A stretch of 64,000 bases of DNA from Anaerolineaceae bacterium (GTDB lineage Bacteria; Chloroflexota; Anaerolineae; Anaerolineales; UBA11657), in contig BGOS01000003.1 of the NCBI GenBank assembly GCA_003569365.1, forward strand, positions 192,315-256,314, written 5' to 3'. Numbering within the stretch: the stretch's first letter is position 1; each line of letters starts with the position of its first letter. The position numbers and the translations under genes were made by a program. The notes beneath the pieces are model-generated. The model was not told where the DNA came from and did not search any database. It saw only the letters and a program-made list of their open reading frames with translations. This document shows, one piece after another, positions 4,680 through 46,343 of this stretch.

Positions 4680-7600
4680 GTTCGTTGATCATGCCCGCAA
4701 AGTAGGCTTGTTCAGATTGCGGTGCGCCAGCCTGGGCTGCCTGTGCGGCCGCAAGCGCAGCCGGTTTGTTGCCGAGGCCAAAATAGAGCTGTGCGAGTGT
4801 GCGTTGCACCATCCAAGGCGTGAACTCGCGCGCTGCTTGGCCGCTGGCCGCTTGTTCTGCAAGCCCGCGCTCAAAGAATGCGATTGCGGTGGTTGCGTGT
4901 TGTGCGGATTGCGCCGGCTGCAAAGTGCTGCGCTGGACGTACAGGTTGCCTTGCAGAACATTGGTTGCGGCAAGATCGCTGCCGGATTGGAGGCTTGCGG
5001 CCACAGCAAACTCGTCTTGCGCCTCTTCAAAGGCATCCGTTGTGAGGGCTGCTTTGGCTTCCGCAACCCTGCCCAGCTTTATGTGCGTCTTTGCCAAGTC
5101 CTGCGGCTTTTTTTGCAGAGCCAATGCATTGCGGTATGCGGCCGTGGCATCTGCCAAGTGCTTGCCAGCTGCAGTGGTGTCAATTGTTGCGTGCGCCAGA
5201 TGCATGTCTCCAAGGGCGAGGTGCGTGCTGTCGAAGGCCGGGTCGAGCGCGAGGGATTGTGCAAGCTTGGCTTGCGCGGCACTGAAATCGCCGCGTGTTG
5301 CGTATTCAAACCGGGCCCAATCGTTCCAAAGATAAACGTTTGCGGGAGTGACCCAGGTGGCACTCTCAAATGCAGCGGTAGCCTGAGCCGCTTTGGACGG
5401 TTCGTCAGTTGCCCAGTCATGATAGAGGCGGGCTAGTGTTACGGCAGCATCGGCGCCGAACGGCCGGGCTTGGATTGCGGTGCGCAAGGCCGCCTCGGCT
5501 GCGATGCGGTGCGGGTTGCGTTCTGCCGGCGTGGCATTTTGCTGCGCAATGCGGCGCTGCAGCTGGCCTACGCGATACCAGTAGTCCGGCTCGGCGGCGT
5601 GCAATTGCGTCAGCTGCGTGAACAAGCCCAGCGCCGGTTCGAGGCGGTTGTTTGCCTCCAAGGTTTGCGCGTGCTTCGATGTCATCTCGGCTTGCGCGCT
5701 GCCAACATCCGTTTGCCAGCCAAGGCCAGCCGCAAACAGGAAGCCGAGGGCGGTGGTAGCGCCGGCGAATGTGGTGGAGTGCAGCGCTGATACTTTTTGG
5801 CTTTGACTGAGAGCGAGCGAGATTGCTGCCGCGACTGCCCACACGATCAGGTTGTAGGCAGTGAAAAACGACTGGTAAGTAGAGTCGATGCGCAAGGCAT
5901 CCACTGCGGTGGTGGCAGCTGGCTGCGCCAGTGCACCGAGCGCAGCGTTGTAGATTGTAAAAATGACCAGCGTACTTGATGCAATTAGCAGGGCACGCCA
6001 GTAGTCAGCCCACGTGCGGGCAAGCAGCGCAGCGGAACTGAGGGCGGCGAGTAACATGAGGGTAATGATCAACGCGCCTTGTTCTGCCACGCGTTGGCGG
6101 CTGATCGCAAAGTCTGCAATCAATGTTGTACAGATCAACAAGGTGATGAGTCCGGGTACCAGCCATTGTGTAATTATGTTTAGCGGAGCAGATTTTTTTG
6201 CATCCTTCTTTCGGGCAGGTGTGCTTGCGGCAAGGGGGGCGGAGGGGGCGATCGGGGAGAGCGAGCAGAGAAGGGCAACCAGAGTCCAGAACAGTAGCTG
6301 GGTGGTGATGGTTGGAATGCCCACCTGCACTTCAATAAAGTGAGCCGCGAGGGTTCCGAGGACGGCGCTGGCGAGGAGGCGGTCTTCAGTTGGGTTGGTG
6401 TGGTTGCTTGTGTTCGGGGCGGATGCACAGTAAACAGCTGCTCCGGCAACCAGCCCAATCCCGCATGCGGGCGCCACGTAAGACACATCGAAAATAATGT
6501 ACGCAGCCGCGCCCATTGCGATTCCGCCACTGGTGGTGAGCAACAGCAGCATCAGCGTAGCGCTGCGATCGGGGAGCAACCCGGCTGTGCGCATGCCGAG
6601 TACCAGAATGGCTGCCCACATAAACAGCGTGGCAGCGAGCCCCAGCCCGCCGGAAGTAACAAGGGCGTCGAGCAGTAAGTTGTGGGCGCGGTCCGGGAAT
6701 ACATCGCGACCGATGGCATTGTCGTAAACAAGTTCAAAGGCGGGGCCAAATGTTTCCGGCCCGTAGCCTACCAAAGGCCGAATGGCTTGTAGCGCATCTG
6801 CGCCACCAGTGGCAAAGCGAATTGGGGTGCGGGCTGTGGCGAGGCGCAGTGCGCCGCGCCAGATGCGGCTGCGGCCGCTGGTGCTGGTGTCTTCGCTATT
6901 TAGCATGTTGGCGAGCCGCTGCAGGGGCGCGACTGTGCGCAGAGGTTGCAGTGGGCCATTGGGAATGTTGAGCACCGTAATGAAGATGGCACCAGCTGCC
7001 AGCGTTGCGAGCAGCGCGAGCGCCCATGCCCGCCGGCCGGCTTGGCGAAATTGGATCAGCAGCATGAAGCCCACGCCACAAAGCGCAGCCAGCAGTGGTC
7101 CGCGACTTCCGGTCCACCAAAGCGCTACGCTTTGGAGTGCCAGCAGCGTGGCGTATAAAAATCCGCGTGCATTGCGTGCCTGCCAAAGCGGGACGGCACA
7201 CGCGAGAGTAAGCGGCATGGCCATTCCCAAAAATGCGCCGGCAAAAATCGGGTTGCCAAGGGTGCTGATGATGCGCAGGCTGAGGTCATACTCCCACAGC
7301 GCAGGCTCAAATCCAAAGTGCTGTGCAATGCCATGCACGGAGACGACGCAACTGGCAGCGAGCAGTGCGCCAATCAAGCGTTGCTGCTGGGCAGGCTGGC
7401 GCAGTTCGGTGCCTACCGCCAGTGCGACAACAAGCAATGCGAGCAGCGTGTAGGTGCCGTTGTTGCGGCTGAGCGATCCAAAGAAACTCAGGCGCGGATC
7501 AATAGAGAGCGCGGTACTGAGCAGGGTTGCCATGATGAGCACAACTACGGGCGCCAGCAGTGGAGTTGTGCGCAGTTGCTGCCAGCGCGGCAGCCGGCTG

Positions 7601-7803
7601 GCGCGGGCAGCCTGCAGTGCCAGCCAAGCAGCCAGCATGAGCAGCGCCAATGCGCGCAGCACCGCGGTTTTGTCGTAATCGAACATGCCCGCAGAGAACG
7701 GGTTGTAGTAGAGCGGGACTACGACAAGCGCCACCAGCCAGCCGGCTTCAAGGAATCCGGAGCAGAACTGGGCAGCTCGCGTAGGGGCCGCGGAGCCAGC
7801 CAT
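4663..7803 (-). CDS. Giant O-antigen-ligase (Wzy_C)-like membrane protein with C-terminal TPR repeats (intact paralog, 1046 aa)
   Basis: Long ORF with ATG start and many predicted TM segments. Motifs FDYDK, LGNPIFAGAFL, WTGSRGPLLAAL, VGYGPETFG, PDRAHNLLLD. The C-terminal ~330 aa are TPR-like (EPDYWYRVGQL, YLWNDWARFEY). Confidence 0.85.
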   Translation of the reverse strand: MAGSAAPTRAAQFCSGFLEAGWLVALVVVPLYYNPFSAGMFDYDKTAVLRALALLMLAAWLALQAARASRLPRWQQLRTTPLLAPVVVLIMATLLSTALSIDPRLSFFGSLSRNNGTYTLLALLVVALAVGTELRQPAQQQRLIGALLAASCVVSVHGIAQHFGFEPALWEYDLSLRIISTLGNPIFAGAFLGMAMPLTLACAVPLWQARNARGFLYATLLALQSVALWWTGSRGPLLAALCGVGFMLLIQFRQAGRRAWALALLATLAAGAIFITVLNIPNGPLQPLRTVAPLQRLANMLNSEDTSTSGRSRIWRGALRLATARTPIRFATGGADALQAIRPLVGYGPETFGPAFELVYDNAIGRDVFPDRAHNLLLDALVTSGGLGLAATLFMWAAILVLGMRTAGLLPDRSATLMLLLLTTSGGIAMGAAAYIIFDVSYVAPACGIGLVAGAAVYCASAPNTSNHTNPTEDRLLASAVLGTLAAHFIEVQVGIPTITTQLLFWTLVALLCSLSPIAPSAPLAASTPARKKDAKKSAPLNIITQWLVPGLITLLICTTLIADFAISRQRVAEQGALIITLMLLAALSSAALLARTWADYWRALLIASSTLVIFTIYNAALGALAQPAATTAVDALRIDSTYQSFFTAYNLIVWAVAAAISLALSQSQKVSALHSTTFAGATTALGFLFAAGLGWQTDVGSAQAEMTSKHAQTLEANNRLEPALGLFTQLTQLHAAEPDYWYRVGQLQRRIAQQNATPAERNPHRIAAEAALRTAIQARPFGADAAVTLARLYHDWATDEPSKAAQATAAFESATWVTPANVYLWNDWARFEYATRGDFSAAQAKLAQSLALDPAFDSTHLALGDMHLAHATIDTTAAGKHLADATAAYRNALALQKKPQDLAKTHIKLGRVAEAKAALTTDAFEEAQDEFAVAASLQSGSDLAATNVLQGNLYVQRSTLQPAQSAQHATTAIAFFERGLAEQAASGQAAREFTPWMVQRTLAQLYFGLGNKPAALAAAQAAQAGAPQSEQAYFAGMINELAPAK

Positions 7804-7916
7804 GCGGTGATGATAACCAATCGACGGCGTGGGCGGCTTTTGATTTTGTAAAGGTGAAGTTAATTCGGCGTGGCGACGCGTGGAATGCCACGCTTTGCGC
7901 GGTGTAAACTTGGCGC

Positions 7917-9317
7917 GTGGCGATGCTATTTGCGCGCAATGCAGCGCTGCTGGTTACGATGGACGATGCGCGCCGTGAGATAGCGGGCGGTGCCTTGGTA
8001 GTGCGGGACGGCTGGATAGATGCGGTTGGCCCCTCGGAAATGTTTGCGGTTGAGCCGGGAGCGACAGTATTGGATCTTACGGGGCACATTGTGATCCCCG
8101 GATTAGTGAATACGCACCATCATCTTTATCAAACGCTTACGCGCGCAGTGCCGGCTGCGCAGAACGCCAACTTGTTTGGCTGGCTGAAAACGCTCTATCC
8201 AATCTGGGCGCGCATGGGTCCGGACGCTGTATACACAAGTGCGTTGGTGGGAATGGCGGAGCTGCTGCTTTCCGGATGCACAACCATCAGCGACCATTTG
8301 TACATGTTTCCCAATGGCGCGCGGCTGGATGATGAAGTGCGCGCAGCGCAGGAGATTGGTGTGCGCTTTCACGCCTCGCGCGGCTCAATGAGCCTGGGCG
8401 AATCGCAGGGTGGCCTGCCGCCTGATCGCGTGGTGGAGCGCGAGCCGGCAATACTGCGCGATTGTCTGCGGGTGATCGAGCAGTTTCATGATCCCAAGCC
8501 GGGCTCAATGCTGCGCGTGGTTGTGGCGCCGTGTTCTCCCTTTTCTGTCAGTGCCGGCTTGATGCGCGAGTCGGTTGAACTGGCGCGCAGTCACGGCGTG
8601 CAGCTGCACACGCATCTGGCCGAAACGCTGGATGAGGAACTTTTTTGCGAACAGAAGTTTGGGCACCGGCCAGTGGCTTATGCCGAGGAGCTGGGTTGGA
8701 CGGGGCCGGATGTATGGTTTGCGCATATGGTGCACGTGAGTGCGCGCGAAATTCCGTTGCTGGCGCAGGCAGGCTGCGGGCTCGCTCATTGCCCGTCGTC
8801 GAACATGCGGCTCGCGTCAGGCATTGCGCCAATTATGGACTATCGGCGGGCGGGCGTGAAGGTGGGTTTGGGTGTGGATGGATCTGCATCCAATGATGGC
8901 AACCACATGTTGCTGGAGGCGCGGCAGGCCATGTTGTTGGCGCGCTTGAAGCTGGCTGAGGACGAACGGCAGGCGCATGCCAGCGGCGCCAAGAGCGCAG
9001 CGGCACCGCAGATGACGGCGCGCGAGGCGCTGGAGATTGCAACGCTCGGCGGCGCAAGTGTGTTGGGCCGCACGGACATTGGCGCGCTTGCGCCCGGCAT
9101 GTGCGGTGATTTTGTGGCGTACAAACTGGACCGGCTGGCTTTTGCCGGCGCACAAGCAGATCCTTTGGCTGCGCTTTTGTTTTGCGCGCCGCAGCAGCCG
9201 GATGTGGTGGTTGTAAATGGACGGGTGCTTGTGCAGGATGGACAGCTGACTACGATTGACCTGCCACCTGTGATTGAGCGGCACAACCGGATTTCGATGG
9301 AGATGATTAACGGGTGA
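7917..9317 (+). CDS. Amidohydrolase-superfamily deaminase, 8-oxoguanine deaminase / SsnA-like
   Basis: 466 aa. Motifs IPGLVNTHHHLYQTLTR (HxH metal site), LHTHLAETLDE, AHCPSSNMRLASG, GLGVDGSASND. From memory it is colinear over nearly its full length with 8-oxoguanine deaminase-type enzymes. Start is GTG 7917 or ATG 7923. Confidence 0.85.
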   Translation: MAMLFARNAALLVTMDDARREIAGGALVVRDGWIDAVGPSEMFAVEPGATVLDLTGHIVIPGLVNTHHHLYQTLTRAVPAAQNANLFGWLKTLYPIWARMGPDAVYTSALVGMAELLLSGCTTISDHLYMFPNGARLDDEVRAAQEIGVRFHASRGSMSLGESQGGLPPDRVVEREPAILRDCLRVIEQFHDPKPGSMLRVVVAPCSPFSVSAGLMRESVELARSHGVQLHTHLAETLDEELFCEQKFGHRPVAYAEELGWTGPDVWFAHMVHVSAREIPLLAQAGCGLAHCPSSNMRLASGIAPIMDYRRAGVKVGLGVDGSASNDGNHMLLEARQAMLLARLKLAEDERQAHASGAKSAAAPQMTAREALEIATLGGASVLGRTDIGALAPGMCGDFVAYKLDRLAFAGAQADPLAALLFCAPQQPDVVVVNGRVLVQDGQLTTIDLPPVIERHNRISMEMING

Positions 9318-9423
9318 CGCGGGTGGGCACGATGCGTGTCGGAGCCGGTTGGCGGTGCTTGACATACGCTATGATTGAGATGCGAGCGGCGGTGATCTGC
9401 CAGTTTGCCAGGGAGGATCTTAG

Positions 9424-10413
9424 GTGAAACGAGTCGCACTTTATTTGCAGGATGCACATTCGCTGCAGGACGGTATTAAGTATGCGCAGTATGCGGAGGC
9501 GCATGGGTTTGAGGCCGTGTGGCAGGCCGAAAGCCGGCTGGTGCGGGATGCGATTGTTCCGATGGCTGCGTTTGCGGCCACTACGTCGCGCATCAAGATC
9601 GGCTCGGGTGTCATCAACAACTGGACGCGCAACATCGGGCTGCTGGCGTCCACTTTTTTGACGCTGGATGACCTGGCTCCTAACCGCATCATTTGCGGTA
9701 TTGGTGCGTGGTGGGACCCACTCGCAGCAAATGTGGGTATCGAGCGGCGGAAACCGCTGCTTGCCATGCGCGAAACAATTGAAGTGTTGCGGCGCTTGCT
9801 TGCCATGGAGAACGTCACGTTCGACGGTGAGTTTCACAAAGTGAAGGGAATTGAGCTGGATGTGGTGCACGGTCGGCGCGAGCCGCGCAACGTCCCGGTG
9901 TTCATTGGCGCCACTGGCATGAAGATGATGGAGATGACCGGTGAAATTGCGGATGGCGCGGTGTTGAACTATTGCGTGCCGCCAGAGTACAACGATGACG
10001 CGATGGAGCAGCTGGCCGCCGGGGCCAAGCGCGCTGGCCGCAGCATGGATGAGATAGACCGGCCGCAGCTGATCGTGTGCTCGGTGCACAAGGACCGGGC
10101 GGTGGCGATAACTGGTGCGAAGCGCTTGCTCACGCAGTATCTGGCGCAGCAGCCGCACATTGCAAAGGCCTCCGGAGTTAGCGCCGACGTGGTGGGCAAG
10201 GTGCAATCTATTTTGGGCTGGCCCGCAACAAAAGAGCAGGTTGAAGAGGCGATGCAATTTGTGCCGGACGATTTCGTTTTGAAGATAAGTGCCACGGGTA
10301 CGCCGGATGAAGTGCGTGCGCGCGTGCAGCAATATATTGACCGGGGTTGCACCTGTCCCATTTTGTATCCGATGGGCGATCCGTATCTTATGATGGACAC
10401 GTTTGCAGTTTAG
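9424..10413 (+). CDS. LLM-class (luciferase-like) flavin/F420-dependent oxidoreductase, Mer-like
   Basis: 329 aa. GTG start 7 nt after GGGAGGA. The luciferase-like TIM-barrel pattern ([12 protein letters not shown]..., [35 protein letters not shown]) is typical of F420-dependent LLM enzymes. Cofactor assignment is an inference. Confidence 0.75.
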
Positions 10414-10466
10414 TATGCGGTTTGGGTCTGCAGCAGAACATTTAACAACGAGCGAAATCATATATT

Positions 10467-11672
10467 ATGAAACCAGCTGAAGTGGCAGCAGTGCAAGCGC
10501 GTGTGGCCGCGGCCAAGCCGAAGATCGTGCAGTTTTTGCGCGAGCTGTGCGCAATTCCTTCAATGGAAAGCAAGATTGGGCCGGTAGGCGAGCGGGCTGC
10601 AGCCGAGATGCGCGGGCTCAAGTTCGACGAAGTCCGTTTTGACAAGATGGGCAATATTCTGGGCCGCATCGGCAGCGGGGCGCGCACGATTGTTTTTGAC
10701 TCGCACATTGATACGGTTGGCATTGGCGACCCGTCGGCGTGGGGTTGGGATCCTTTTGCGGGCAAGGTGGAGGATGGCGTACTGTACGCGCGCGGCGCCT
10801 GCGATGAGAAGGGCAGTACGCCGGGCATGATTTACGGGATGGCAATTGCTCGCGACCTGGGTTTGCTGGAAGGCTGGACCGCTTATTATTTTGGCAACAT
10901 GGAAGAGTGGTGCGACGGGATTGCCTGCAACACTTTTGTGGAGGTGGACCCGGGCGTGCGGCCGGACTTTGTGGTTATCGGCGAGCCGACGCGCATGCTG
11001 GTATACCGCGGGCACAAGGGCCGGCTGGAGATGAAGGTGACGGCGCGCGGTCGCAGTGCGCATGCAGCCAGCAATCATTTGGGCGATAACGCAATTTACA
11101 AACTGCTGCCCATCATCGAGGCGATCAAGAACATGGAGCCGCAGCTGGGCGACCATGAATTCCTCGGCCACGGCAAGATTACCGTGTCTGACATGCATGT
11201 GAAGACTCCCAGTATCAATGCCGTGCCGGATGAAGCCACAATTTTTATTGACCGGCGGATGACGTTCGGTGAGACGAAGGCAGCGGTGCTGGCGCAGATT
11301 GAGGCATGTATCCCGGTGGCAGTGCGCGACAGCGTCAAACTGGCTGAGCTTTTCTACGATGACCCTTCATACACCGGCTATGTGTTTCCGGTGGAAAAGT
11401 ATTTTCCGGCATGGGCGTTCCCCGAGGACCATCCGCTGGTACAGGCGGGGCAGGCCGCACGCGGCGTGATCGGGCTGGCTGCTGCGCCTGCGAGTAAATG
11501 GAACTTCAGCACGAACGGAATCTATTGGGCGGGCAAGGCGGGCATTCCTTCCATTGGGTTTGGTCCCGGGGATGAAGTTACGGCGCACACCGTAAATGAT
11601 TCTGTGTCGTTGGCTGATGTGGTGAAGGCAACCGAGTTCTATGCGGTGCTGGCGAGCCAGATTCCGCTTTAG
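10467..11672 (+). CDS. YgeY-family M20 metallopeptidase/deacylase
   Basis: 401 aa. M20 metal and catalytic motifs FDSHIDTVG, ARGACDEKG, VIGEPT, GHKGR, plus C-terminal GFGPGDEVTAHTVNDSV. Resembles E. coli YgeY-type hydrolases overall. Confidence 0.85.
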   Translation: MKPAEVAAVQARVAAAKPKIVQFLRELCAIPSMESKIGPVGERAAAEMRGLKFDEVRFDKMGNILGRIGSGARTIVFDSHIDTVGIGDPSAWGWDPFAGKVEDGVLYARGACDEKGSTPGMIYGMAIARDLGLLEGWTAYYFGNMEEWCDGIACNTFVEVDPGVRPDFVVIGEPTRMLVYRGHKGRLEMKVTARGRSAHAASNHLGDNAIYKLLPIIEAIKNMEPQLGDHEFLGHGKITVSDMHVKTPSINAVPDEATIFIDRRMTFGETKAAVLAQIEACIPVAVRDSVKLAELFYDDPSYTGYVFPVEKYFPAWAFPEDHPLVQAGQAARGVIGLAAAPASKWNFSTNGIYWAGKAGIPSIGFGPGDEVTAHTVNDSVSLADVVKATEFYAVLASQIPL

Positions 11673-11700
11673 GGCTTTACGCACAGTTTGCTATTAAGTC

Positions 11701-12651
11701 ATGGCTGAGGGGCGGCTGGCTGTTGTGGCGGTGGGTGGCAACTCGCTGATTACTAGCAACACGCAGCGTTCGGTGCCGGATCAGTTTGATGCGGCTGCGG
11801 TATCAATGCGTTACGTGGCGGACATGGTCGAAGCCGGCTGGCGCGTGGTGCTAACGCACGGCAACGGACCGCAGGTGGGTTTTATTTTGCGGCGCTCGGA
11901 GTTGGCGCTGCATGAGCTGCATCCCGTGCCGATGGATTATGCGGTTGCTGACACGCAGGGTGCCATCGGGTACATGTTTCAAAAGGCGCTGCTGAATGAA
12001 TTTAGCGCGCGCGGGATGCAGCGCGCTGTGGCAACCGTGGTGACCCAGGTGCGGGTGGATGAGGACGACGCGGCTTTTACTGATCCCGCAAAGCCGATCG
12101 GTTCGTTTATGGATGAGGCAACTGCCCGCAAGCGCGAGGCTGAGTTAGGTTGGCGGGTGAGGGAAGATTCTGGTCGCGGCTGGCGCTGGGTGGTGCCTTC
12201 GCCAATGCCGCGCGAGATCATAGAGTTGGCCTCAATCCGGGTGCTGTCCCAAAGCGGGTGTTTGGTTGTGGCGTGCGGCGGGGGCGGTATTCCCGTAGTG
12301 CGGCGCACTGGCGGCAAGTTGCGGGGCGTGGAGGCAGTGATCGACAAGGACCATGTGTCGGCGTTGCTGGCGGAGCAGCTGGGTGCCGATCTGTTCTTGA
12401 TATCCACTGCGGTGCCGCAGGTTCTGGTGAACTTTAATAAGCCGGACCAGCGCGCTCTAGCGCGGGTGACACTTGCGGAAGTGCAGGCGCTCAACGATCA
12501 GGGACATTTTGCAAAGGGCAGCATGCAGCCGAAGATCGTGGCAATGATGCACTATTTGGAAAATGGCGGTGAGGCTGGATTGATCACGGACCCCGAGAAT
12601 ATTGGGCGGGCGCTCGCGGGTGAAACCGGTACTCATTTTGTGGTGAGGTAG
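11701..12651 (+). CDS. arcC: Carbamate kinase
   Basis: 316 aa. Motifs VVAVGGNSL, LTHGNGPQVG, ACGGGGIPV, DKDHVSALLA, FAKGSMQPKI are the classic carbamate-kinase signature. Confidence 0.9.
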   Translation: MAEGRLAVVAVGGNSLITSNTQRSVPDQFDAAAVSMRYVADMVEAGWRVVLTHGNGPQVGFILRRSELALHELHPVPMDYAVADTQGAIGYMFQKALLNEFSARGMQRAVATVVTQVRVDEDDAAFTDPAKPIGSFMDEATARKREAELGWRVREDSGRGWRWVVPSPMPREIIELASIRVLSQSGCLVVACGGGGIPVVRRTGGKLRGVEAVIDKDHVSALLAEQLGADLFLISTAVPQVLVNFNKPDQRALARVTLAEVQALNDQGHFAKGSMQPKIVAMMHYLENGGEAGLITDPENIGRALAGETGTHFVVR

Positions 12652-12896: not shown

Positions 12897-15311
12897 ATGA
12901 AAGTATCGAAAATGTTGAACGGGTTGGTGGCTGGTGCCGTGCTGTTGGGTGCTTGCGCTGCGCCGCCTGCCCCGGCTGCGGTGGTTGCGCCAACGGCAGT
13001 GCCGGCAGCGGTTCCCGAAGGCAAGAAGATGGAGATCTTCAGCTGGTGGACGAATGGCGGTGAAGCCGATGGCTTGAACGCGATGTTCGAGATCTTTACG
13101 GCGAAGAATCCGGACACGGAGATTATTAATGCGACAGTCGCCGGTGGCGCGGGCACAAATGCGAAGACCGTGCTGAAGACGCGTTTGCAGGGCGGCCAGC
13201 CGCCGGACACTTGGCAGGTGCATGCTGGCAAAGAGTTGACGCAGTATGTTGATGCCGGGCAGATGGAGCCGTTGACTGGCTTCTTCAAAGAGCAGGGCTT
13301 TGACAAGAACATGCCGCAACTGCTGCTGGATCAAATTACATACAACGGTGAGATTTATTCGGTGCCGGTGAACATTCATCGCTCCAATGTGCTTTGGTAC
13401 AACATCAAGGTGTTTGGCGATAACAATATTACGCCGCCGACGACGTTTGAAGAGTTTTTTGCAGTGGCTGACAAGCTCAAAGCTGCGGGCATTATTCCGC
13501 TGGCGGTGGGTGGTGCCGACAAGTTTGAGGCACCGCATCTCTTTGAGAGCGTGCTGCTGGGTGTTTACGGCCAGGATGACTATGTGAAGTTGGTTGGCGG
13601 CGATGCGGCGTTGTGGGCTGACGCGCGTCTGGATACAAGCATCAACACTCTGGCGCGCATGCTGTCCTACTCCAATGATGACCGGGCTTCGATTGGCTGG
13701 TCCAGTGGCGCAGACATGGTGCTGGAGGGCAAAGCGGCCATGACGATTATGGGCGACTGGGCGCATGGTTACATGATGAGCAAAGGCGCAGCGGCTGGTA
13801 CTGATTATGGTTACGCGCCGGCGCCTGGCAATGGCGGCGTGTTTATGTGGCTGAGCGACAGCTTCGGGCTCGCAAAGGGTGCACCGCACCCGGAAGAGGC
13901 GAAAGCGTGGCTGGCGGTGGCTGGCTCGCGCGCCGGGCAGGATGCCTTCAATCCAAAGAAAGGCTCCATTCCGGCACGCACCGACGCAGACCAAAGCCTG
14001 TACGATGTATATCTTAAATATTCCATCAAGAGCTTTGGTTCTGACAAACTTGCGCCGAGCATTGTGCACGGCGCTGGTGCACCGGAACCGTTCATGGCGC
14101 TCTACGGCAATGCGTTGAATGTGTTCTCAAGCGACTTGGATGGCGAGGTGTTGAAGAGCTCGCTGGTGGAGGCGACTGCTGAGCTTGGCGCCAAGGACGT
14201 AACAGCCGCCGCATTTGCCAAAGAAATCGTGGCGGGCTTGATTATGGTGGGCCCGGAACGGGACCACGGCTGGAATGAGGCGCATCTTATGGCGACAGAT
14301 TATGTGACGGGCAAGATGCCCAATGTGCGCTGGGTGATGATCGACAAGGTTAATGGAGCAGACCGGCCCGACACCACGATCGAGCAGCTTGCGGATGATT
14401 TTGCGGCGAAGGGCGCGCAGATTATTTTCACTAATTCGGCCGAGTTCAAGGACCCGACAAATAATGCGGCGAAGGCGCATCCCGAGATTACCTTCATTCA
14501 CATTTCTGGCGATGCAGTGAAAGACGGAACTGCGGCGCCGAATGTGGGCAACTTCATGGGCCGTATGGAGTCTATGAAGCACGTGTCCGGGTGTGCGGCG
14601 GCGCTGCAGACGAGCACTGGCAAGATATCCTATCTTGGCCCGTTGATTGACGCAGAGACGCGGCGGTTGGTGAACAGTGCTTATCTGGGCGCGAAATACT
14701 GCTGGGAGAAGAGTGGTAAGAAGGCGTCGGATTTGAAGTTCGACGTTACATGGATTGGGTTCTGGTTCAATATCCCGGGATTTACGCTGGATCCCACCCA
14801 GGTGGTGAACGATTTCTACAATTCCGGTTCGGATGTAGTCTTGTCTGGCATTGATACCACCGAGGCTGTGGTTGTGGCTGGCCAGCGCGCCGAAAAGGGC
14901 GAAAAGGTTTACGCTATTCCATACGACTATCTGGCTGCGTGTGCCGAAGCTCCAAAAGTGTGCCTCGGCGTCCCCTACTTCAACTGGGGCCCACTGTATC
15001 TCTCGGCTGTGAAGGGTGTGGGTGAGGGAACGTGGAAACAGTCTTGGGATTGGGCAGGTGCGGACTGGGCTGACATGAAGAATCCGGATACGGGCACTGT
15101 GGGTTGGGAAAACGGCGGTGGGCTGAGCGCTGCCAATCAGGCAACGCTCGATGGCTTTATCAAGGAGCTTGCCGGCGGCCTCAACCTGTTTACCGGCCCG
15201 CTAAAGTATCAGGATGGAACGGAGTTCGTGGCGAAGGATGCGGTGGCTTCAGACGAGCAAGTCTGGTATACGGAGCAGCTCTTGGCGGGTGTTAAAGGCG
15301 CTTCGAAGTAG
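12897..15311 (+). CDS. Lipoprotein fusing two different ABC solute-binding domains: N-terminal family-1 (sugar-type) SBP and C-terminal BMP/PnrA-type (nucleoside-type) SBP
   Basis: 804 aa. GGAGGAG RBS. Signal peptide with lipobox LLGAC. Residues ~40-440 resemble an extracellular solute-binding family-1 protein (FSWWTNGGEADGL..., GDWAHGYM). Residues ~455-804 resemble a BMP-family SBP (IMVGPERDHGWNEAH, LFTGPLKYQDGTE). Confidence 0.85.
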   Translation: MKVSKMLNGLVAGAVLLGACAAPPAPAAVVAPTAVPAAVPEGKKMEIFSWWTNGGEADGLNAMFEIFTAKNPDTEIINATVAGGAGTNAKTVLKTRLQGGQPPDTWQVHAGKELTQYVDAGQMEPLTGFFKEQGFDKNMPQLLLDQITYNGEIYSVPVNIHRSNVLWYNIKVFGDNNITPPTTFEEFFAVADKLKAAGIIPLAVGGADKFEAPHLFESVLLGVYGQDDYVKLVGGDAALWADARLDTSINTLARMLSYSNDDRASIGWSSGADMVLEGKAAMTIMGDWAHGYMMSKGAAAGTDYGYAPAPGNGGVFMWLSDSFGLAKGAPHPEEAKAWLAVAGSRAGQDAFNPKKGSIPARTDADQSLYDVYLKYSIKSFGSDKLAPSIVHGAGAPEPFMALYGNALNVFSSDLDGEVLKSSLVEATAELGAKDVTAAAFAKEIVAGLIMVGPERDHGWNEAHLMATDYVTGKMPNVRWVMIDKVNGADRPDTTIEQLADDFAAKGAQIIFTNSAEFKDPTNNAAKAHPEITFIHISGDAVKDGTAAPNVGNFMGRMESMKHVSGCAAALQTSTGKISYLGPLIDAETRRLVNSAYLGAKYCWEKSGKKASDLKFDVTWIGFWFNIPGFTLDPTQVVNDFYNSGSDVVLSGIDTTEAVVVAGQRAEKGEKVYAIPYDYLAACAEAPKVCLGVPYFNWGPLYLSAVKGVGEGTWKQSWDWAGADWADMKNPDTGTVGWENGGGLSAANQATLDGFIKELAGGLNLFTGPLKYQDGTEFVAKDAVASDEQVWYTEQLLAGVKGASK

Positions 15312-15396: not shown

Positions 15397-16863
15397 ATGA
15401 AGATCGAGCTGCGCGAGATACACAAGCGGTTTGGCGCTGTGCATGCCAATGCGGGCATCAATCTCAGCGTCGGCACCGGTACGATTCTGGGAATTTTGGG
15501 TGAGAACGGGGCCGGCAAAAGCACACTGATGAAAATCCTGTCCGGGTATTTCCATCCGGACAGTGGCGGAATATTACTGGACGGCGCGGCAGTGCGCTTG
15601 CGTACTCCGGCTGACGCGCTGCGGCATGGCGTGGGTATGCTGCACCAGGACCCGCTCGACTTCCCCCCGATGCGCGTGCTTGACAACTTTCTGCTGGGAC
15701 GCGAGCACCAGTTCTGGCAGCGCCGCAGCGCTGCGCGCGCTGATTTCGATGCACTCTGCAGCGAGTTTGAATTCCGGCTGGATCCGGATGGTTTTATGTT
15801 TGATCTGACGGTTGGCGAGCGCCAGCAGCTGGAGATTGCGCGCTTGCTGTGGCTGGGCGCCCGGGTGCTCATTTTGGACGAGCCAACAACTGGTATATCG
15901 GCCAATCAGAAAGTAAAGCTGTTTGCCACGCTGCGCAAACTGGCTGCTCAAAACAAGACCGTGATCTTTGTGTCGCACAAGCTGGAAGATGTAGAAGGCT
16001 TGTGCGGGCGGGTGGCGGTGTTGCGGCGGGGCGCGCTGGTGGGTGAGGCGCAGCCGCCGTATACAACTGCCGGCCTCGTGCAAATGATGTTCGGCCAGGC
16101 GTTGGCAGTTGGGGTGCGGCCGGCAGCGCCATTGGGCGCACCACAGCTGGAGTTGCGCGGAGCTGAGTTTGCAGGTGAACATATTGTGCTGCGCAATGTG
16201 GACCTTACGGTGGCTGCGGGGGAGGTGGTCGGTCTTGCCGGTCTGGAGGGTTCCGGTCAGCAGCAGCTGTTGAAAGGGGTGGCAGGTTTGGTTGCGCTTG
16301 GCAAAGGCAGCTTGAAGATTGGAGGGCGTGATCTGTCACAGGCATCTTACAAGGAATTTTTAGCCGCTGGTACCGCGTTCATGGCGGCGGACCGGCTGGA
16401 AGAGGGAATGATTGCGGGGCTTACGATCGAAGAGCACATGGTGCTGGCACGGCGCGGCAAGCAGCCGGCAATTGTGGATTGGGCAGTTGCGCGAACGGCT
16501 GCGCAGGCGGGCATCGCGGAGTTCAATATCAAGGGCGCTCCAGCTAGTGTGGTGGAGGGGCTTTCGGGTGGCAACCAACAGCGCGCGCTGCTGGCGTTGC
16601 TACCGCCGGCTCTCAAGCTGCTGGCAATGGAACATCCGACGCGTGGACTGGATGTTGAGTCTGCCATCTACATTTGGAGCAAGCTGCTCATGCGGCGGGC
16701 GGAGGGAACCGCAATACTTTTTGCCACCGCAGATTTGGAAGAGCTGCTGCGCTATAGTGACCGGGTGCTGGTATTTTTTGCCGGTGAGATCATGGCTGTG
16801 CTGCGCGCGGCGGATGCCACGGTTGAGCAGCTTGGCGCGCTAATCGGGGGCAAACAAAAATGA
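15397..16863 (+). CDS. ABC transporter ATP-binding protein with duplicated NBD (sugar/nucleoside CUT2-type)
   Basis: 488 aa. Walker A GENGAGKST, Walker B LILDEPT, a second NBD with the signature LSGGNQQR. Stop overlaps the next start (ATGA at 16860). Confidence 0.9.
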   Translation: MKIELREIHKRFGAVHANAGINLSVGTGTILGILGENGAGKSTLMKILSGYFHPDSGGILLDGAAVRLRTPADALRHGVGMLHQDPLDFPPMRVLDNFLLGREHQFWQRRSAARADFDALCSEFEFRLDPDGFMFDLTVGERQQLEIARLLWLGARVLILDEPTTGISANQKVKLFATLRKLAAQNKTVIFVSHKLEDVEGLCGRVAVLRRGALVGEAQPPYTTAGLVQMMFGQALAVGVRPAAPLGAPQLELRGAEFAGEHIVLRNVDLTVAAGEVVGLAGLEGSGQQQLLKGVAGLVALGKGSLKIGGRDLSQASYKEFLAAGTAFMAADRLEEGMIAGLTIEEHMVLARRGKQPAIVDWAVARTAAQAGIAEFNIKGAPASVVEGLSGGNQQRALLALLPPALKLLAMEHPTRGLDVESAIYIWSKLLMRRAEGTAILFATADLEELLRYSDRVLVFFAGEIMAVLRAADATVEQLGALIGGKQK

Positions 16864-17939
16864 GCAGTCTGGCAGCGACTGAGCGGCAGGGATGGGTTGG
16901 GCGTGTGCTGCTGGTGCTTGGCCCGGTGCTGCTGGCGCTTGTGATCACCTCTGGAATACTTGTACTGGCGGGCGCCAACCCACAAGCAACTTTGCTCAAG
17001 CTGTTAGCAGGCTCTTTTGGAACAGCGGTGAAGCGCGCGGATGTGGCGGTTGTGTGGGTGTCGCTGGTTATTTGTACTGCGGGCTTGCTGGTGAGCTTTA
17101 CTGCCGGTCAGTGGAACATCGGCATGGAAGGGCAGATTGTGATGGGGGCAATAGTTGCAACGTGGGTTGGCCGGCAGTTTGTGGACATCTCCGGTGTTCT
17201 CGAGCGCGGGGCACCGCTTTTGGTAATTGCAGCAATGGTTGCAGGCGGCATTTGTGGCGGCGTGGTGTGGGCTACCGCAGCCGGCGCATTGAAAGTGCTC
17301 GGCAAGGTGCATGAAATATTTGCGGGCCTTGGCTTGAATTTTGTTGCCAGTGCCGCAAGCATCTATCTGATTTTTGGCACTTGGAAGCAGAAGTCCGGCG
17401 GCACATTGAGTGGCACTGTTTTGCTTGACGAGCAGCTGTGGCTGCCAACGCTGCAGGGTTTGCGGGCGAGCCCATACTCGCTGGGGCTGGCGGTGGTTGT
17501 TGTTGCGGCGGTCTATTTCGCGTTGCGGGGCACGCTGTGGGGCTTGCAGTTGAAGGCGGTGGGCCGGAACCTGCGCGCGGCCCGCACGCTGGGTGTCGCC
17601 ACTCACCGGGTGCTGTTTAGCGCCTACGCTGTTTGTGGAGCGTGCGCGGGCCTCGCGGGCGCTGTGCTTGTGGTTGGCGTGCATCATCGCTTGATACCGG
17701 GCATTTCCTCCGGGCATGGCTTTATGGGTATTCTGATTGCGTTGCTTTCCGGGTTTCAGGCGCTTTACATTGCGCCGATTGCGCTTTTCTTTGCGGCACT
17801 CAGCATCGGAAGCATTGCGCTGCAGCTGGATCTCAAACTCGATTCGTCGCTTGCGGGTGTGGTGCAGGGAGTGATGGTGCTGTGTGTGCTGCTGGTGCAA
17901 GGGGTGCGCCAGTGGCGGAGTGGCGGGTCCGGCACATGA
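16860..17939 (+). CDS. ABC transporter permease (BMP/ribose-type, first of two)
   Basis: 359 aa and highly hydrophobic (~8-10 TM). Translationally coupled on both sides. Confidence 0.85.
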   Translation: MSSLAATERQGWVGRVLLVLGPVLLALVITSGILVLAGANPQATLLKLLAGSFGTAVKRADVAVVWVSLVICTAGLLVSFTAGQWNIGMEGQIVMGAIVATWVGRQFVDISGVLERGAPLLVIAAMVAGGICGGVVWATAAGALKVLGKVHEIFAGLGLNFVASAASIYLIFGTWKQKSGGTLSGTVLLDEQLWLPTLQGLRASPYSLGLAVVVVAAVYFALRGTLWGLQLKAVGRNLRAARTLGVATHRVLFSAYAVCGACAGLAGAVLVVGVHHRLIPGISSGHGFMGILIALLSGFQALYIAPIALFFAALSIGSIALQLDLKLDSSLAGVVQGVMVLCVLLVQGVRQWRSGGSGT

Positions 17940-18958
17940 GCGAAGTGGTTTTGATTGCAACGCTGGCGTCAATTCTCGCGGACAGCGCGCCAATAATTTT
18001 TGCTGCACTTGGCGAAACCCTGAACGAGCGTGCGGGTGTCGTCAATCTTTCGGTTGAGGGCACAATGATGCTCAGTGCCATGATAGGGTTTGCTGCAGCG
18101 TTTGTATTGGACGGCTACGGGCCAATGCTGTTTATGGGCACTGACCTTGCGCCCTACATCACGGTTGCAGCTGGTTTCGCGGCTGCAATGCTGGCGGGCG
18201 CGCTGATTGCGCTGGTCGTTGCATTTGGCAGCATTACCCTGCGGCGTGATCAGGTTGCAGTGGGTTTCATCATGACCCTGCTGGCGATAGATTTGAGCTC
18301 GTTTGCCGGTGTTAATTTTGTGCGCAAGCCTGGCCCGTCGGTCGGGCATCTGCCTATTCCCGCTCTCGCTGACATTCCTGTTGTCGGGCCAATCTTGTTC
18401 TCGCAGGATGCTGTGACTTACTTGAGCTTTTTACTAATCATTGGCATGGCAGTGTTTTTTGCGCGCACCCAGCCGGGCCTGCGGCTGCGCGGCATTGGCG
18501 AGCGGCCACAGGCAGCTTTTGCCCGCGGCACCAATGTAGTGCTGATGCGCTATCTCTATACGGCGCTGGGCGGAGCGTTGATCGGATTTGGCGGTGCGGC
18601 TTTCTCGTTGCATGTAAAGCTTGGCTGGAGCCACCGCCACACTGCGGGCTTTGGCTGGGTGGCATTGGCAATTGTAATTTTTGGCGGATGGGATCCGCTG
18701 AAGGTTGCGCTCGGTGCTTATTTCTTTGGCGCCTTGCGGGCAGCTGCAACCACGCTGCAAGCGTTGCTGCCGGCAGTGCCCGTGCAGGTGTTTCCGTTGC
18801 TGCCGTTCCCGCTGATGATCCTCACGCTGGTGATATTTAATAGTGATGGATTAGTGCGGGCACTTAGTCTGCTGCCGCTTGGGCCGCGCCGCTTTTTGTT
18901 TGGTCTCTTGCGGAGCAATCCTCCCGCAGCTCTCGGCACGCACTTTCGGCAAGAGTGA
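17936..18958 (+). CDS. ABC transporter permease (second of two)
   Basis: I chose the in-frame ATG at 17936 (MSEVVLIATLASILADSAPIIFAALGETLNERAGVVNLSVEG), which forms an ATGA overlap with the upstream stop. The longer track ORF (17633) has an implausible Cys/Arg-rich extension. Confidence 0.85.
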   Translation: MSEVVLIATLASILADSAPIIFAALGETLNERAGVVNLSVEGTMMLSAMIGFAAAFVLDGYGPMLFMGTDLAPYITVAAGFAAAMLAGALIALVVAFGSITLRRDQVAVGFIMTLLAIDLSSFAGVNFVRKPGPSVGHLPIPALADIPVVGPILFSQDAVTYLSFLLIIGMAVFFARTQPGLRLRGIGERPQAAFARGTNVVLMRYLYTALGGALIGFGGAAFSLHVKLGWSHRHTAGFGWVALAIVIFGGWDPLKVALGAYFFGALRAAATTLQALLPAVPVQVFPLLPFPLMILTLVIFNSDGLVRALSLLPLGPRRFLFGLLRSNPPAALGTHFRQE

Positions 18959-19163: not shown

Positions 19164-20441
19164 GTGGTATCGGCGGAACTTGTGAGCCAAATTAATTACG
19201 CATGCAATAGGTGCGGTCCTTTGGCGGGCCTGGCGGAGCCGGTGTATGTCTGCCCGCAATGCTGTGGCAATTTGGATGTGGTGCTGGATGTGGAACAGGT
19301 GCGGCGCTTGCATGCCCCGGGAAGCATTGGAGCTGGGACGGATGCGTCGTTGTGGCGCTACGCCGCGCTGCTGCCGGTAAAAGTGCCGCCCGCAACCACT
19401 GCAACCCTGCGCACTGTCGGTGGCACGCCGTTGTTTCCGGTTTCGCGGTTGGCGCAGCATTGCGGGCTTCGGGACGTGTGGATAAAAGATGACAGCCGCC
19501 TGCCAACGGCTTCGTTTAAAGACCGGGCGAGTGCGGTGGTGGTGGCGCGGGCGCTTGACCTGGGTTACACGCGGCTGATTACTGCATCGACGGGCAATGC
19601 CGGCGTGGCGCTGGCAGGCATGGCAGCTGCTGCCGGGCTGGAGGCGGTCATCCTCGTTCCTGAGAGCGCGCCGCCGGCCAAGATTGCACAGTTGCTCATA
19701 TTTGGAGCTCGCCTGATTCTCGTGAAGGGCAACTATGATGCGGCCTTTAAGCTGAGCCTGCAAGCGGCGCGAGAGCTGGGTATGTACTGTCGGAGCACCG
19801 GCTACAACCCGTTTACGCTGGAGGGCAAGAAGACTGCAGCTTTTGAGATCGCTGAACAGCTTGCCGCCAGTTTGGGGGGTGAGGTGCGTGAGATGTGGAC
19901 TGCGCCGGACTGTGTGTTTGTTTCCGTGGGCGATGGTAACATCATCGGTGGGGTGCACAAGGGGTTCAAGGAGCTGCATGCCCTCGGCTGGATTAGCCGG
20001 GTGCCACGTATGATCGGCGTGCAGGCGGTGGGTTCGGCGGCAATCTACAATGCGTTTGCTGCGCGGACGGATGCTATTGCGCCAGTTGACGCACACACGG
20101 TGGCGGACAGCATTGCGGCGGACTTTCCGGCAGACGGTTTGCATGGCTTGCAGGCGGCAACGCAATCGGCTGGTGCCTACCTGACTGTTACGGATGATGA
20201 AATTCTGGCTGCGATACCGGAGCTGGCGCGCTTGACCGGCGTATTTGCGGAACCGTCGTGCGCGGCGGCATACGCGGGTTTGCTAAAGGCGGCGCGCAGC
20301 GGCCTGGTGGCGGCGCACGAGCGGGTGGTGCTGCTGATAACTGGCAGCGGTTTGAAGGATGTGGCAACTGCGATGCGCACGGTTGGTGCGGCGCCGGTAA
20401 TCGCACCAACTGTTGCGGAATTGCGCCAAGCGTTGGTGTGA
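19164..20441 (+). CDS. Threonine-synthase-like PLP enzyme with N-terminal Cys4 zinc ribbon
   Basis: 425 aa. CNRCG...CPQCCG ribbon, PLP-lysine motif PTASFKDR, STGNAG, GDGNIIGG. The fold assignment is firm but the substrate is not. Confidence 0.75.
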   Translation: MVSAELVSQINYACNRCGPLAGLAEPVYVCPQCCGNLDVVLDVEQVRRLHAPGSIGAGTDASLWRYAALLPVKVPPATTATLRTVGGTPLFPVSRLAQHCGLRDVWIKDDSRLPTASFKDRASAVVVARALDLGYTRLITASTGNAGVALAGMAAAAGLEAVILVPESAPPAKIAQLLIFGARLILVKGNYDAAFKLSLQAARELGMYCRSTGYNPFTLEGKKTAAFEIAEQLAASLGGEVREMWTAPDCVFVSVGDGNIIGGVHKGFKELHALGWISRVPRMIGVQAVGSAAIYNAFAARTDAIAPVDAHTVADSIAADFPADGLHGLQAATQSAGAYLTVTDDEILAAIPELARLTGVFAEPSCAAAYAGLLKAARSGLVAAHERVVLLITGSGLKDVATAMRTVGAAPVIAPTVAELRQALV

Positions 20442-20453
20442 GGAGTTGACTGC

Positions 20454-21278
20454 GTGAAAATTTTGATTGCAGCGGACATGGAGGGCGTCACCGGCGTTGT
20501 GAACTGGGATCACGTCGATCCGGCGCACGCTGAGTACCAGCGATTCCGCCGGTTGATGACCGCCGATGTGAACGCTGCGGTATGCGGTGCGTATTTAGGC
20601 GGAGCCTCCGCGGTTACGGTAACGGATGGACATTGGGGCAACCGTAATATTTTGATTGAGGAACTTGAAGAGCGGGCGACGTTACAAAGCGGTGGCACGC
20701 GCCCGCTGGCTATGGTTCAGGGTGTCGAAGCGGATGTGGCGGGTGTTTGCTTTGTGGGGTACCACGCGCGGGCTGGTTCGCAGTATGCTGTGCTGGACCA
20801 TACATGGTCTGACACCACTGTAGCCAACTTGCGGTTGAACGGAGAGGTGGTTGGCGAGATCGGCCTGAATGCTGCGGTGTGCGGCCACTTTAATGTTCCA
20901 GTGGTTATGATCTCTGGCGATCAGACTGCGTGCAAAGAGGCGCTTGAGTTGCTGGGCGGGCTGGAAGTGGCAACAGTGAAGCAGGCGCAAGGGCGGATGG
21001 CAGCAGACTGCCTGCCGCCGGTGGTTTCGCAGCGCCGCATCTGCGAGGCGGCGGCGCGCGCAGTTGCGCGCGTGGTGGCGGGAACCGCACCCGCGCCGTT
21101 TCGGCTGGTGCTGCCAGTGATGGTTGAGATTGAGTTTATGCAGTCTGACATGGCGGACCGCGCGAGTCTGGTTCCGGGCAGCCAGCGCGGGGCCGACCGC
21201 TGCGTGCAGTTTGAGGCACGCGATATGCTTGCGGCTTATAACGCGTTCAGAACATTGTGTGCGACATCGCGCAACTAG
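20454..21278 (+). CDS. M55-family metallopeptidase (DppA-type D-aminopeptidase)
   Basis: 274 aa. GTG start. The N-terminus MKILIAADMEGVTGV plus GYHARAG and EIGLNAA are typical of the M55 family. Confidence 0.85.
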   Translation: MKILIAADMEGVTGVVNWDHVDPAHAEYQRFRRLMTADVNAAVCGAYLGGASAVTVTDGHWGNRNILIEELEERATLQSGGTRPLAMVQGVEADVAGVCFVGYHARAGSQYAVLDHTWSDTTVANLRLNGEVVGEIGLNAAVCGHFNVPVVMISGDQTACKEALELLGGLEVATVKQAQGRMAADCLPPVVSQRRICEAAARAVARVVAGTAPAPFRLVLPVMVEIEFMQSDMADRASLVPGSQRGADRCVQFEARDMLAAYNAFRTLCATSRN

Positions 21279-21299
21279 CAATGGTCAAGGATACAACAA

Positions 21300-31366: not shown

Positions 31367-31605
31367 GCTGTCTATTTTCAGCCGCTAACCCATTCTCTTG
31401 GATGGTTTTGCGTGGCTCCTGAAGCGTGGTTGGATAAAGTTCACAGAGTAGACTAGTGGTTGCATAGTATCGCCGCAGCAAGAATTGGGATGGCAATGTT
31501 CGCTGCAGTACTGGAAATATGTAGTTGTGGGTGCAGTTGGCGCCGGGGTATGTCTCCAGCGCGTCGCGCCAGTTGTTGTTGGAAACGAGCTGTGAGGATA
31601 CATTG

Positions 31606-46309: not shown

Positions 46310-46343
46310 CAGGCAGCCTTGCGCCCGGCGCAGTGTTGTGCGC

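Follow-up and report, generated by a model that had tools for sequence, protein, structure and literature searches.

Which transporter does each receptor serve when two unrelated ones sit on a single chain? The question is raised by a gene in a 64,000-nucleotide stretch of an Anaerolineaceae genome (GenBank assembly GCA_003569365.1, contig BGOS01000003.1, positions 192,315 to 256,314; hereafter the window), where one open reading frame (ORF) of 804 codons joins two substrate-binding proteins (SBPs) of ATP-binding cassette (ABC) importers, a family-1 sugar receptor (SBP1) and a receptor of the basic membrane protein family (BMP, Pfam Bmp). In the usual picture, an ABC importer has a single receptor, or a set of homologous ones, encoded alongside it. 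Here, the product is one lipoprotein that holds two complete receptors, each of its own structural class; the adjoining importer has the BMP module as its cognate receptor, and the sugar module is probably a passenger at this locus. The reading we favour, with a confidence only a little above even, is that two autonomous receptors share one anchor and that the sugar module putatively serves a permease encoded elsewhere.

Two complete receptors on one lipoprotein

The ORF (12897-15311, forward strand) is a single frame without interruption, ending in a stop codon at 15309-15311, and its product is laid out as follows, where pLDDT is the predicted local distance difference test score and dN/dS the ratio of nonsynonymous to synonymous divergence.

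12897-12956, forward strand: lipoprotein signal peptide, ending at the lipobox LLGA-C20 (Cys20 at 12954-12956); from reading the sequence
12957-13025, forward strand: Ala/Pro-rich, putatively flexible tether (aa 21-43) between lipid anchor and module 1; low complexity, pLDDT about 30, dN/dS 0.16-0.37
13026-14192, forward strand: module 1 (aa 44-432), family-1 (SBP_bac_1) hexose receptor of the Thermus TtGBP type; from Pfam, PDB 2b3b, and sugar contacts
14193-14225, forward strand: inter-module connector (aa 433-443), AKDVTAAAFAK; standalone homologues end at about aa 432, pLDDT <50 at 432-441
14226-15311, forward strand: module 2 (aa 444-804 and stop), BMP receptor of the purine-base subgroup; from Pfam Bmp, 3s99/AtzT alignments, and pocket residues

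The initial annotation had described one 804-residue ORF with one LLGAC lipoprotein signal, and both are there. The N-terminus, MKVSKMLNGLVAGAVLLGAC, carries the charged residues K2 and K5 ahead of a hydrophobic core, and the lipobox L-L-G-A-C20 can be read straight from the sequence. With K2 and K5 followed by LNGLVAGAVLLGA-C20, the chain has the hallmarks of a bacterial lipoprotein and is predicted to be lipidated at C20. The LLGAC motif is kept in all fused orthologues and in an allele that lacks the sugar module (P0121), where the layout is the canonical one, with its own signal peptide directly before the BMP domain. In the fused chain the lipobox stands 424 residues upstream of the BMP module, with the sugar module in between, and inspection of the junction, which includes ELGAKDVTAAAFAKEIVAGL, found no second Cys and no second lipobox there.

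That the two halves are complete receptors of different folds, as had been proposed, is borne out by Pfam, by PDB alignments, and by Foldseek, although the proposed limits of about aa 40-440 and 455-804 have to be corrected to 44-432 and 444-804. The N-terminal half matches SBP_bac_1 at aa 56-348 (9e-34) and SBP_bac_8 at aa 62-367 (2e-24), so the idea that it might fit no SBP model can be dropped, and it aligns with PDB 2b3b, the glucose/galactose-binding protein of Thermus thermophilus (TtGBP), over aa 44-414 (E 1.7e-100). The C-terminal half matches Bmp (PF02608) at aa 445-678 (1e-14, 54.6 bits), a partial match covering profile positions 3-216 of 301; it aligns with PDB 3s99, a Brucella 'basic membrane lipoprotein', over aa 444-798 (E 1.4e-27) and with AtzT (PDB 6pi5; E 9e-20). 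Standalone family-1 homologues stop at about aa 432 of the fused chain, and the 11 residues of the connector are weakly conserved among orthologues, evolving as fast as the tether.

An AlphaFold2 model was built on a checked alignment (A4) that included signal-trimmed BMP homologues; two others (A1 and A3) were discarded, MAFFT having placed standalone homologues of one half onto the wrong half. Mean pLDDT is 86.6, with about 90 in both modules and <50 in residues 1-40 and in the connector (432-441). The predicted template modelling (TM) score of 0.52 describes two confident globules whose mutual orientation is undefined, and the model has no inter-module interface. Each globule gave a full-length receptor match in Foldseek: TM 0.95 with a root-mean-square deviation of 1.6 A for the first against 2b3b, and TM 0.91 against 3s99 and 0.89 against AtzT for the second, whose cluster B-I fold is complete. 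The connector is thus predicted to be flexible and the modules to be autonomous.

All sequences compared here come from metagenome assemblies, which is what can be said for an assembly artefact, or for a pseudogene born of a missed stop codon or frameshift. The identical 804-residue protein, however, is encoded by 20 contigs that stem from various sequencing runs and assemblers (among them Logan DRR583443/506/717 and ENA ERZ27280315). Further, a look for the same fusion in other genomes, as suggested in the initial annotation, found fused orthologues at 87-96% identity in JGI, ENA, NCBI, and other metagenome assemblies, with junction and neighbours alike, rather than the two separate genes expected if the fusion were an artefact. 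More than 10 diverged orthologues share the junction; ten protein clusters at 87-96% identity were seen for the combination of SBP1 with a 3s99-like Bmp, which is confined to a narrow lineage related to the freshwater CL500-11 Chloroflexi. Both modules are under strong purifying selection (codon-level dN/dS in three orthologues 0.04-0.06 for the sugar module and 0.07-0.10 for the BMP module). Given the 20 identical contigs, the diverged fused orthologues, and dN/dS <0.1 in both halves, the artefact reading is refuted, and its probability is next to nil.

A genuine fusion could also be processed once exported, with a cut in the connector that yields two separate receptors. The connector is exposed, disordered, and variable, as this would require, but it is just 11 residues long, and no second lipobox or Cys at the junction would hold the freed BMP module, which would escape to the medium because the cell is a single-membrane Chloroflexi (PMC6169038). 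With the architecture retained in many families besides, we regard such cleavage as highly improbable.

Ligand pockets and the adjoining importer

Module 1 resembles the glucose receptors TtGBP and GltB/ppGBP/SAR11_0769 (family 1, CUT1): it is 44% identical to TtGBP over the whole domain, with the TM score given above, and has the TtGBP state at its sugar contacts. Twelve such positions have been defined for Pseudomonas putida ppGBP (W35, W36, E41, G68, Q90, K92, W250, W270, N301, D303, K339, and H379; PMC7927077). Their equivalents in module 1 are W50, W51, E56, A85, Q107, H109, W268, W288, L319, D321, K355, and H391, the same as in TtGBP at 12/12 positions and as in ppGBP at 9/12. The twelve contacts are invariant across 9 SBP1-Bmp fusions, 2 fusions of SBP1 with a family-5 receptor (SBP1-SBP5), and 39 standalone homologues; in the 142 modules taken from tandem proteins, three of the positions are occasionally substituted and the contacts are otherwise constant. 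Judging from these contacts, we infer that the ligand of module 1 is glucose, galactose, or mannose. It departs from TtGBP- and GltB-type receptors in that no MalFG-type permease adjoins it, that a second, unrelated receptor follows in-frame, and that in this lineage it has been met only as a fusion.

The initial annotation took the C-terminal module for a PnrA-type nucleoside receptor; alignments and pocket place it instead in the purine-base-binding BMP subgroup of 3s99 and AtzT. The guanine pocket of AtzT comprises Y45, S97, E165, W194, N218, and N220, and binds guanine with a Kd of 0.11 uM (PMC6834077). Module 2 keeps the aromatic sandwich (W459 and W623), the Ser (S514), and the Glu (E587), whereas N218 is replaced by G651 and N220 by D653, the latter as in 3s99, which was deposited with adenine modelled. 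As far as aligned residues can tell, the pocket is compatible with a purine-like base. The likeness to 3s99 and AtzT extends from the cluster B-I fold, the aromatic sandwich, and the Ser/Glu contacts to the adjoining genes, a double-NBD (nucleotide-binding domain) ATPase and two BPD_transp_2 permeases as in BMP systems of this type. The differences are an identity of only about 25%, the two changed pocket positions, and a lipid anchor that module 2 reaches through another receptor, not directly. Members of this purine-type subfamily, relatives of the C-terminal module, also occur as the extracellular domain of a Ser/Thr protein kinase (among P0320, P0316, and P0417).

The genes that bear on the role of module 2 are the following.

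7917-9317, forward strand: 8-oxoguanine-deaminase-like amidohydrolase; Pfam/NCBIfam, above the NCBIfam cut-off
9424-10413, forward strand: F420-type LLM oxidoreductase; Pfam/NCBIfam
10467-11672, forward strand: YgeY-family M20 hydrolase; Pfam/NCBIfam, above the NCBIfam cut-off
11701-12651, forward strand: carbamate kinase; Pfam/NCBIfam
15397-16863, forward strand: ABC ATPase with two fused NBDs; Pfam ABC_tran in two stretches, conserved beside fused and unfused receptors
16860-17939, forward strand: permease 1, BPD_transp_2; Pfam and gene calls on identical contigs
17936-18958, forward strand: permease 2, BPD_transp_2, 340 aa as called on identical contigs; Pfam and gene calls in L002-L004

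Pfam and gene order agree with the earlier view that the double-NBD ATPase and the two permeases downstream are the partner of the BMP half. An unfused BMP relative (P0123, 69% identity) has the same core of LLM oxidoreductase, Bmp, ATPase, and two permeases, flanked by other purine genes (XdhC and adenine deaminase). P0123 shares this core gene order, and the alleles without a sugar module are found at the syntenic locus, which marks the BMP module as the cognate receptor for the adjoining importer. The cargo of that importer is most likely a purine-like base, to go by pocket and gene neighbourhood. Among the upstream catabolic genes, NF006055 is matched at 671 bits (cut-off 532) and TIGR03526 at 459 bits (cut-off 321); the order of these genes (7917-12651) is the same in L091, and a xanthine-dehydrogenase-type subunit is encoded further on in the window (31525-33957). 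The block resembles the ygeW-yqeA purine-breakdown region of E. coli, here with an F420 enzyme. A scan of the coding strand around the gene for promoters and terminators gave nothing beyond chance, and a search for riboswitches and known RNAs upstream gave no Rfam match in the window.

The sugar module as a probable passenger

Relatives of the sugar module point to a different kind of transporter. Of the loci of its clade in GTDB species representatives, 72 have enough flanking DNA to be judged, and in 60 of these MalFG-type permeases stand directly downstream of the standalone or tandem relative; BPD_transp_2 permeases are never paired with family-1 receptors of this clade. In the 64-kb window no MalFG-type hexose permease was found anywhere, as the initial annotation had stated for a MalFGK-type partner, and the sole BPD_transp_1 pair (45446-47216) is unrelated at 24 bits. 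The nearest standalone relatives are 61-73% identical and adjoin MalFG-type permeases. A candidate for a closer standalone copy, at 82% identity (L109:1-729), was rejected: it breaks off after ...YGNALNV into unrelated sequence, so the contig is probably a metagenomic chimera and the gene not a standalone one.

The locus also exists without the module. In L089 (P0121, L089:331-1539), and as a slightly different protein in P0312, a 402-residue BMP lipoprotein with a signal peptide of the same type as that of the fused chain lies between the end of the carbamate kinase gene upstream and the ATPase gene downstream. Compared with the fused allele in L090 (P0008), L089 is 98.8% identical in nucleotides from the junction onward and about 81% in the signal region; the break in identity is sharp and falls exactly at the junction, the module border, P0311 having been compared as well. 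A further protein that seemed to be a standalone BMP at 83% identity (P0122) is really a fusion cut by a contig end and was not used as evidence. The BMP and ABC genes are nearly the same in the module-less alleles; the locus can therefore dispense with the sugar module, and the importer evidently works with the BMP module alone.

In the same genome, a sugar module that is 88% identical is fused to a quite different partner, a family-5 (peptide/nickel-type) receptor (P0023, L001, L009), which is followed by Opp/Dpp-type permeases. This fusion shares an extra tail, ELGA-x-x-VTAAA-F/Y (there ELGAtGVTAAAY), that standalone homologues do not have. One of the loci, L009, belongs to the metagenome-assembled genome ZSMay80m-chloro-G1, a representative of the freshwater CL500-11 cluster (PMC6169038), and both the SBP1-Bmp and the SBP1-SBP5 fusion lie on one 206-kb metagenome contig (L100, L095). 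At L001:10001-15027 and L095:4833-9891, SBP1-SBP5 is followed by OppB/OppC-type permeases, with no adjoining OppD/F-type ATPase, and then by a polyphosphate kinase gene.

The history of the sugar module appears to differ from that of the BMP module. In comparisons of the window with the L090 and L091 strains, the BMP module shows 2-4 times as much synonymous divergence as the sugar module, and the same pairs have nucleotide identities of 86-99% in the sugar module and 74-84% in the BMP module. Gene conversion between the two paralogous sugar modules of the genome was considered as a cause and rejected: orthologues (96%) are closer than paralogues (87-88%). Recombination and extra constraint are both possible explanations. 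A search for direct repeats by which the module could have been gained or lost turned up just short chance matches. The lower synonymous divergence of the sugar module, together with the L089/L090 identity break, suggests that recombination close to or exactly at the junction has given the two halves different histories, and the locus is a recombination mosaic. Thus, because its clade pairs with MalFG-type permeases of which the window has none, because alleles without it exist, and because it is reused on a family-5 receptor, the sugar module is probably a passenger at this locus.

These observations bear on whether both modules might feed the adjoining importer, as the initial annotation had allowed. 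The importer would then transport both hexose and purine, in the manner of the tandem receptor domains of GlnPQ. CUT2-type transporters, with BPD_transp_2 permeases and a double-NBD ATPase, do import monosaccharides, and the best NCBIfam matches of the ATPase are to sugar and vitamin systems, all below cut-offs. There is also a precedent for two tethered receptors that compete for one translocator (PMC8025302). The company that the clade keeps (MalFG-type permeases in 60/72 loci, BPD_transp_2 in none) argues otherwise, as do the origin of the modules from different structural clusters and the module-less allele; in addition, the same module precedes an Opp/Dpp-type system, so it cannot suit each permease type. 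We consider a dual-substrate importer improbable.

Multi-receptor chains in Anaerolineae and what they suggest

The initial annotation called the tandem unusual. The fusion is real, but it is less singular than that word implies, as double and triple receptor chains are frequent in Anaerolineae. Tandems of two SBP1 modules, about 840 residues long and followed by MalFG-type permeases (e.g., L006), number 71 among the top matches. The two modules of one protein (P0009-P0091; L006:8001-10532) are 75-99.7% identical, with a median of 84% and the highest values in P0014 (99.7%) and P0020 (99.2%), whereas from species to species the identity of these modules drops to about 55%. The pattern speaks for concerted evolution or repeated re-duplication; the former would imply that a module in the N-terminal position stays fully functional. 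Bmp-Bmp tandems are about 680 residues long. Fusions in the reverse order, with a PnrA-like Bmp ahead of SBP1, form at least 8 protein clusters and have MalFG-type permeases next to them in L039, L092, and L093; fusions of Bmp with Phosphonate-bd are followed by PhnC/E-type genes (L092, L093). In L092:6001-12419 and L093:6001-12184 the two kinds stand in direct succession, Bmp-SBP1 with its MalFG-type permeases and then Bmp-Phosphonate-bd with a PhnC/E-type ATPase and permease. Triple chains (e.g., P0299 with 1036 aa and P0276 with 1071 aa) are of the types Bmp-Bmp-Phosphonate-bd and Bmp three times over. In other organisms, the 3s99-like BMP subfamily is found in SBP_bac_3-Bmp fusions and in chains that join a PnrA-type Bmp to a 3s99-type Bmp (among P0320, P0316, and P0417).

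Wherever the gene context can be read, in SBP1-Bmp, SBP1-SBP5, Bmp-SBP1, Bmp-Phosphonate-bd, and SBP1-SBP1 chains, it is the C-terminal module that fits the downstream permease, and the N-terminal module is the extra one. The exception is an orphan Bmp-SBP1 gene without adjoining permeases (L034:4849-7173), beside a type I phosphodiesterase/nucleotide pyrophosphatase gene (7327-8658). The chain in the window is like the other homo-tandem and hetero-fused lipoproteins of Anaerolineae in that a single lipobox precedes two or three complete receptors, the last of which fits the downstream permease; it differs from them in its combination of SBP1 with a 3s99-like Bmp and in its restriction to the narrow CL500-11-related lineage.

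With a sugar-type and a base-type pocket on one chain, both might cooperate on a single bipartite ligand such as a nucleoside, a nucleotide-sugar, or a glycosylated base, and the initial annotation had named two moieties of one ligand as a possibility. That Bmp and SBP1 were fused independently in both orders would fit. However, receptors of both types enclose their ligand when closed, and the solved homologues bind free glucose and free purine (PMC6834077). The connector is predicted to be flexible, with no interface, and an allele with no sugar module exists. Partners are moreover interchangeable on both sides (SBP5 and SBP1 for the sugar module, SBP_bac_3 and PnrA-type for the BMP subfamily), which disfavours a sugar-plus-base logic. 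A shared ligand therefore seems to us very unlikely indeed, slightly more so even than cleavage of the chain.

The reading that we prefer, two autonomous receptors on one anchor, can be put together as follows. The chain would be a surface lipoprotein with two independent Venus-flytrap receptors on one lipid anchor, in the order signal peptide and Cys20 anchor, Ala/Pro tether of about 23 residues, hexose receptor, 11-residue connector, and purine-base BMP receptor. The BMP module would bind a purine-like base between W459 and W623, with S514, E587, and D653 forming hydrogen bonds, and would dock on the two adjoining BPD_transp_2 permeases, driven by the double-NBD ATPase; the imported base would feed the neighbouring 8-oxoguanine-deaminase-like enzyme, the YgeY-family hydrolase, and carbamate kinase. 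The N-terminal module would capture glucose, galactose, or mannose outside this transporter and most likely deliver the hexose to a MalFG-type (CUT1) permease encoded elsewhere. Expression of the purine and peptide importers would then also set the supply of hexose receptor, and the cell would carry more receptors per anchor, which may be useful to a planktonic oligotroph. Such chains may have arisen when a mature receptor module was joined or inserted in-frame behind the lipoprotein tether of a resident receptor, an event that would be widespread in Anaerolineae.

Several points weigh against this reading. No hexose permease of the lineage was found in the approximately 150 kb of lineage DNA read. 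From 82% identity upward, relatives of the sugar module are fused without exception, none being standalone, and its role may thus be tied to the fusion. Synonymous divergence (dS) between P0008 and P0004 is 0.29 in the sugar module and 1.31 in the BMP module. The independent fusion of Bmp and SBP1 in both orders could hint at a functional link rather than at promiscuity. Finally, both ligands are predicted by homology, and all data come from metagenome assemblies.

Some of these points would suit a sugar module that has no transport role and acts as an extracellular sensor or regulator, or as a bulky spacer or retention domain; the initial annotation had likewise named a cell-surface tether or sensor. 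As a sensor or regulator it might, on sugar-dependent closure, sterically gate the docking of the attached receptor, or it might pass a signal to a kinase in the membrane; signalling to sensor kinases is known for glucose-binding proteins of this family (GltB-GtrS, PMC7927077). Its relatives with at least 82% identity are all add-ons at the N-terminal end of another receptor, and a single genome has them on two or more different receptors; the 64-kb window shows no cognate permease; and the conservation of the module is very high, low dS included. On the other side, the model gives a flexible connector and no interface; the module-less alleles, with their near-identical BMP and ABC genes, show that the importer can do without the module; a pure spacer would not hold all 12 sugar contacts invariant; and in other species the add-on is a BMP or a family-3 module. 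We rate a sensor or spacer as unlikely, though deserving serious consideration.

Somewhat more speculative, and correspondingly doubtful, is an extension of the two-receptor reading in which the hexose receptor of this lineage exists only as an N-terminal passenger and Anaerolineae make 'antenna' lipoproteins that serve several ABC transporters in trans. At least two such passengers are found in one genome, one on the purine receptor and one on the peptide-type receptor, and the capture or sensing of hexose would be hard-wired to the expression of importers for nitrogen-rich substrates. Sugar-induced closure could, as part of the same idea, modulate docking of the attached receptor. If this were true, transporters would be organised at a level that has yet to be described.

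Among known systems, GlnPQ-type importers have tandem substrate-binding domains that are homologous to each other, are fused to the permease, and feed that permease (PMC8025302). Like GlnPQ- and OpuA-type systems, the chain described here has more than one receptor domain per polypeptide, short linkers, and a membrane tether. It is, in contrast, a separate lipoprotein with no fusion to a transmembrane domain, the ATPase being the next gene and the permeases separate genes, and its modules belong to different Pfam clans and structural clusters whose standalone relatives use different permease families. A literature search found no report of a heterologous receptor-receptor lipoprotein fusion, just permease-fused tandem domains (GlnPQ, OpuA), which is not proof of novelty; the multi-receptor lipoprotein habit of Anaerolineae is apparently undescribed so far.

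These chains deserve attention because a single lipid anchor holds two receptors that differ in structural class, and because the principle recurs with many partners throughout a bacterial class. Should the passenger module feed a transporter whose genes lie elsewhere, substrate prediction from operons fails for these organisms, and receptor stoichiometry is coupled between unrelated nutrients, a carbon-rich sugar and a nitrogen-rich purine or peptide. Abundant deep-lake Chloroflexi that live on dilute dissolved organic matter would then have an unnoticed way to place more receptors on each anchor. The natural alleles with and without the sugar module are a ready-made comparison.

Other features of the window, which has a GC content of 59%, lie on both sides of the receptor and importer genes. 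Downstream of the permeases, the conserved block that also includes the upstream catabolic genes continues with one set of genes:

19164-22766, forward strand: ThrC-like PLP (pyridoxal phosphate) enzyme, DppA-like M55 peptidase, and CysK-like PLP enzyme; Pfam/NCBIfam, order conserved in L091

Upstream, on the reverse strand (2760-7803), two large adjoining proteins of 638 and 1045 aa have a Wzy_C/O-antigen-ligase domain as their sole Pfam match, and a TPR protein is encoded beside them at 1526-2857.

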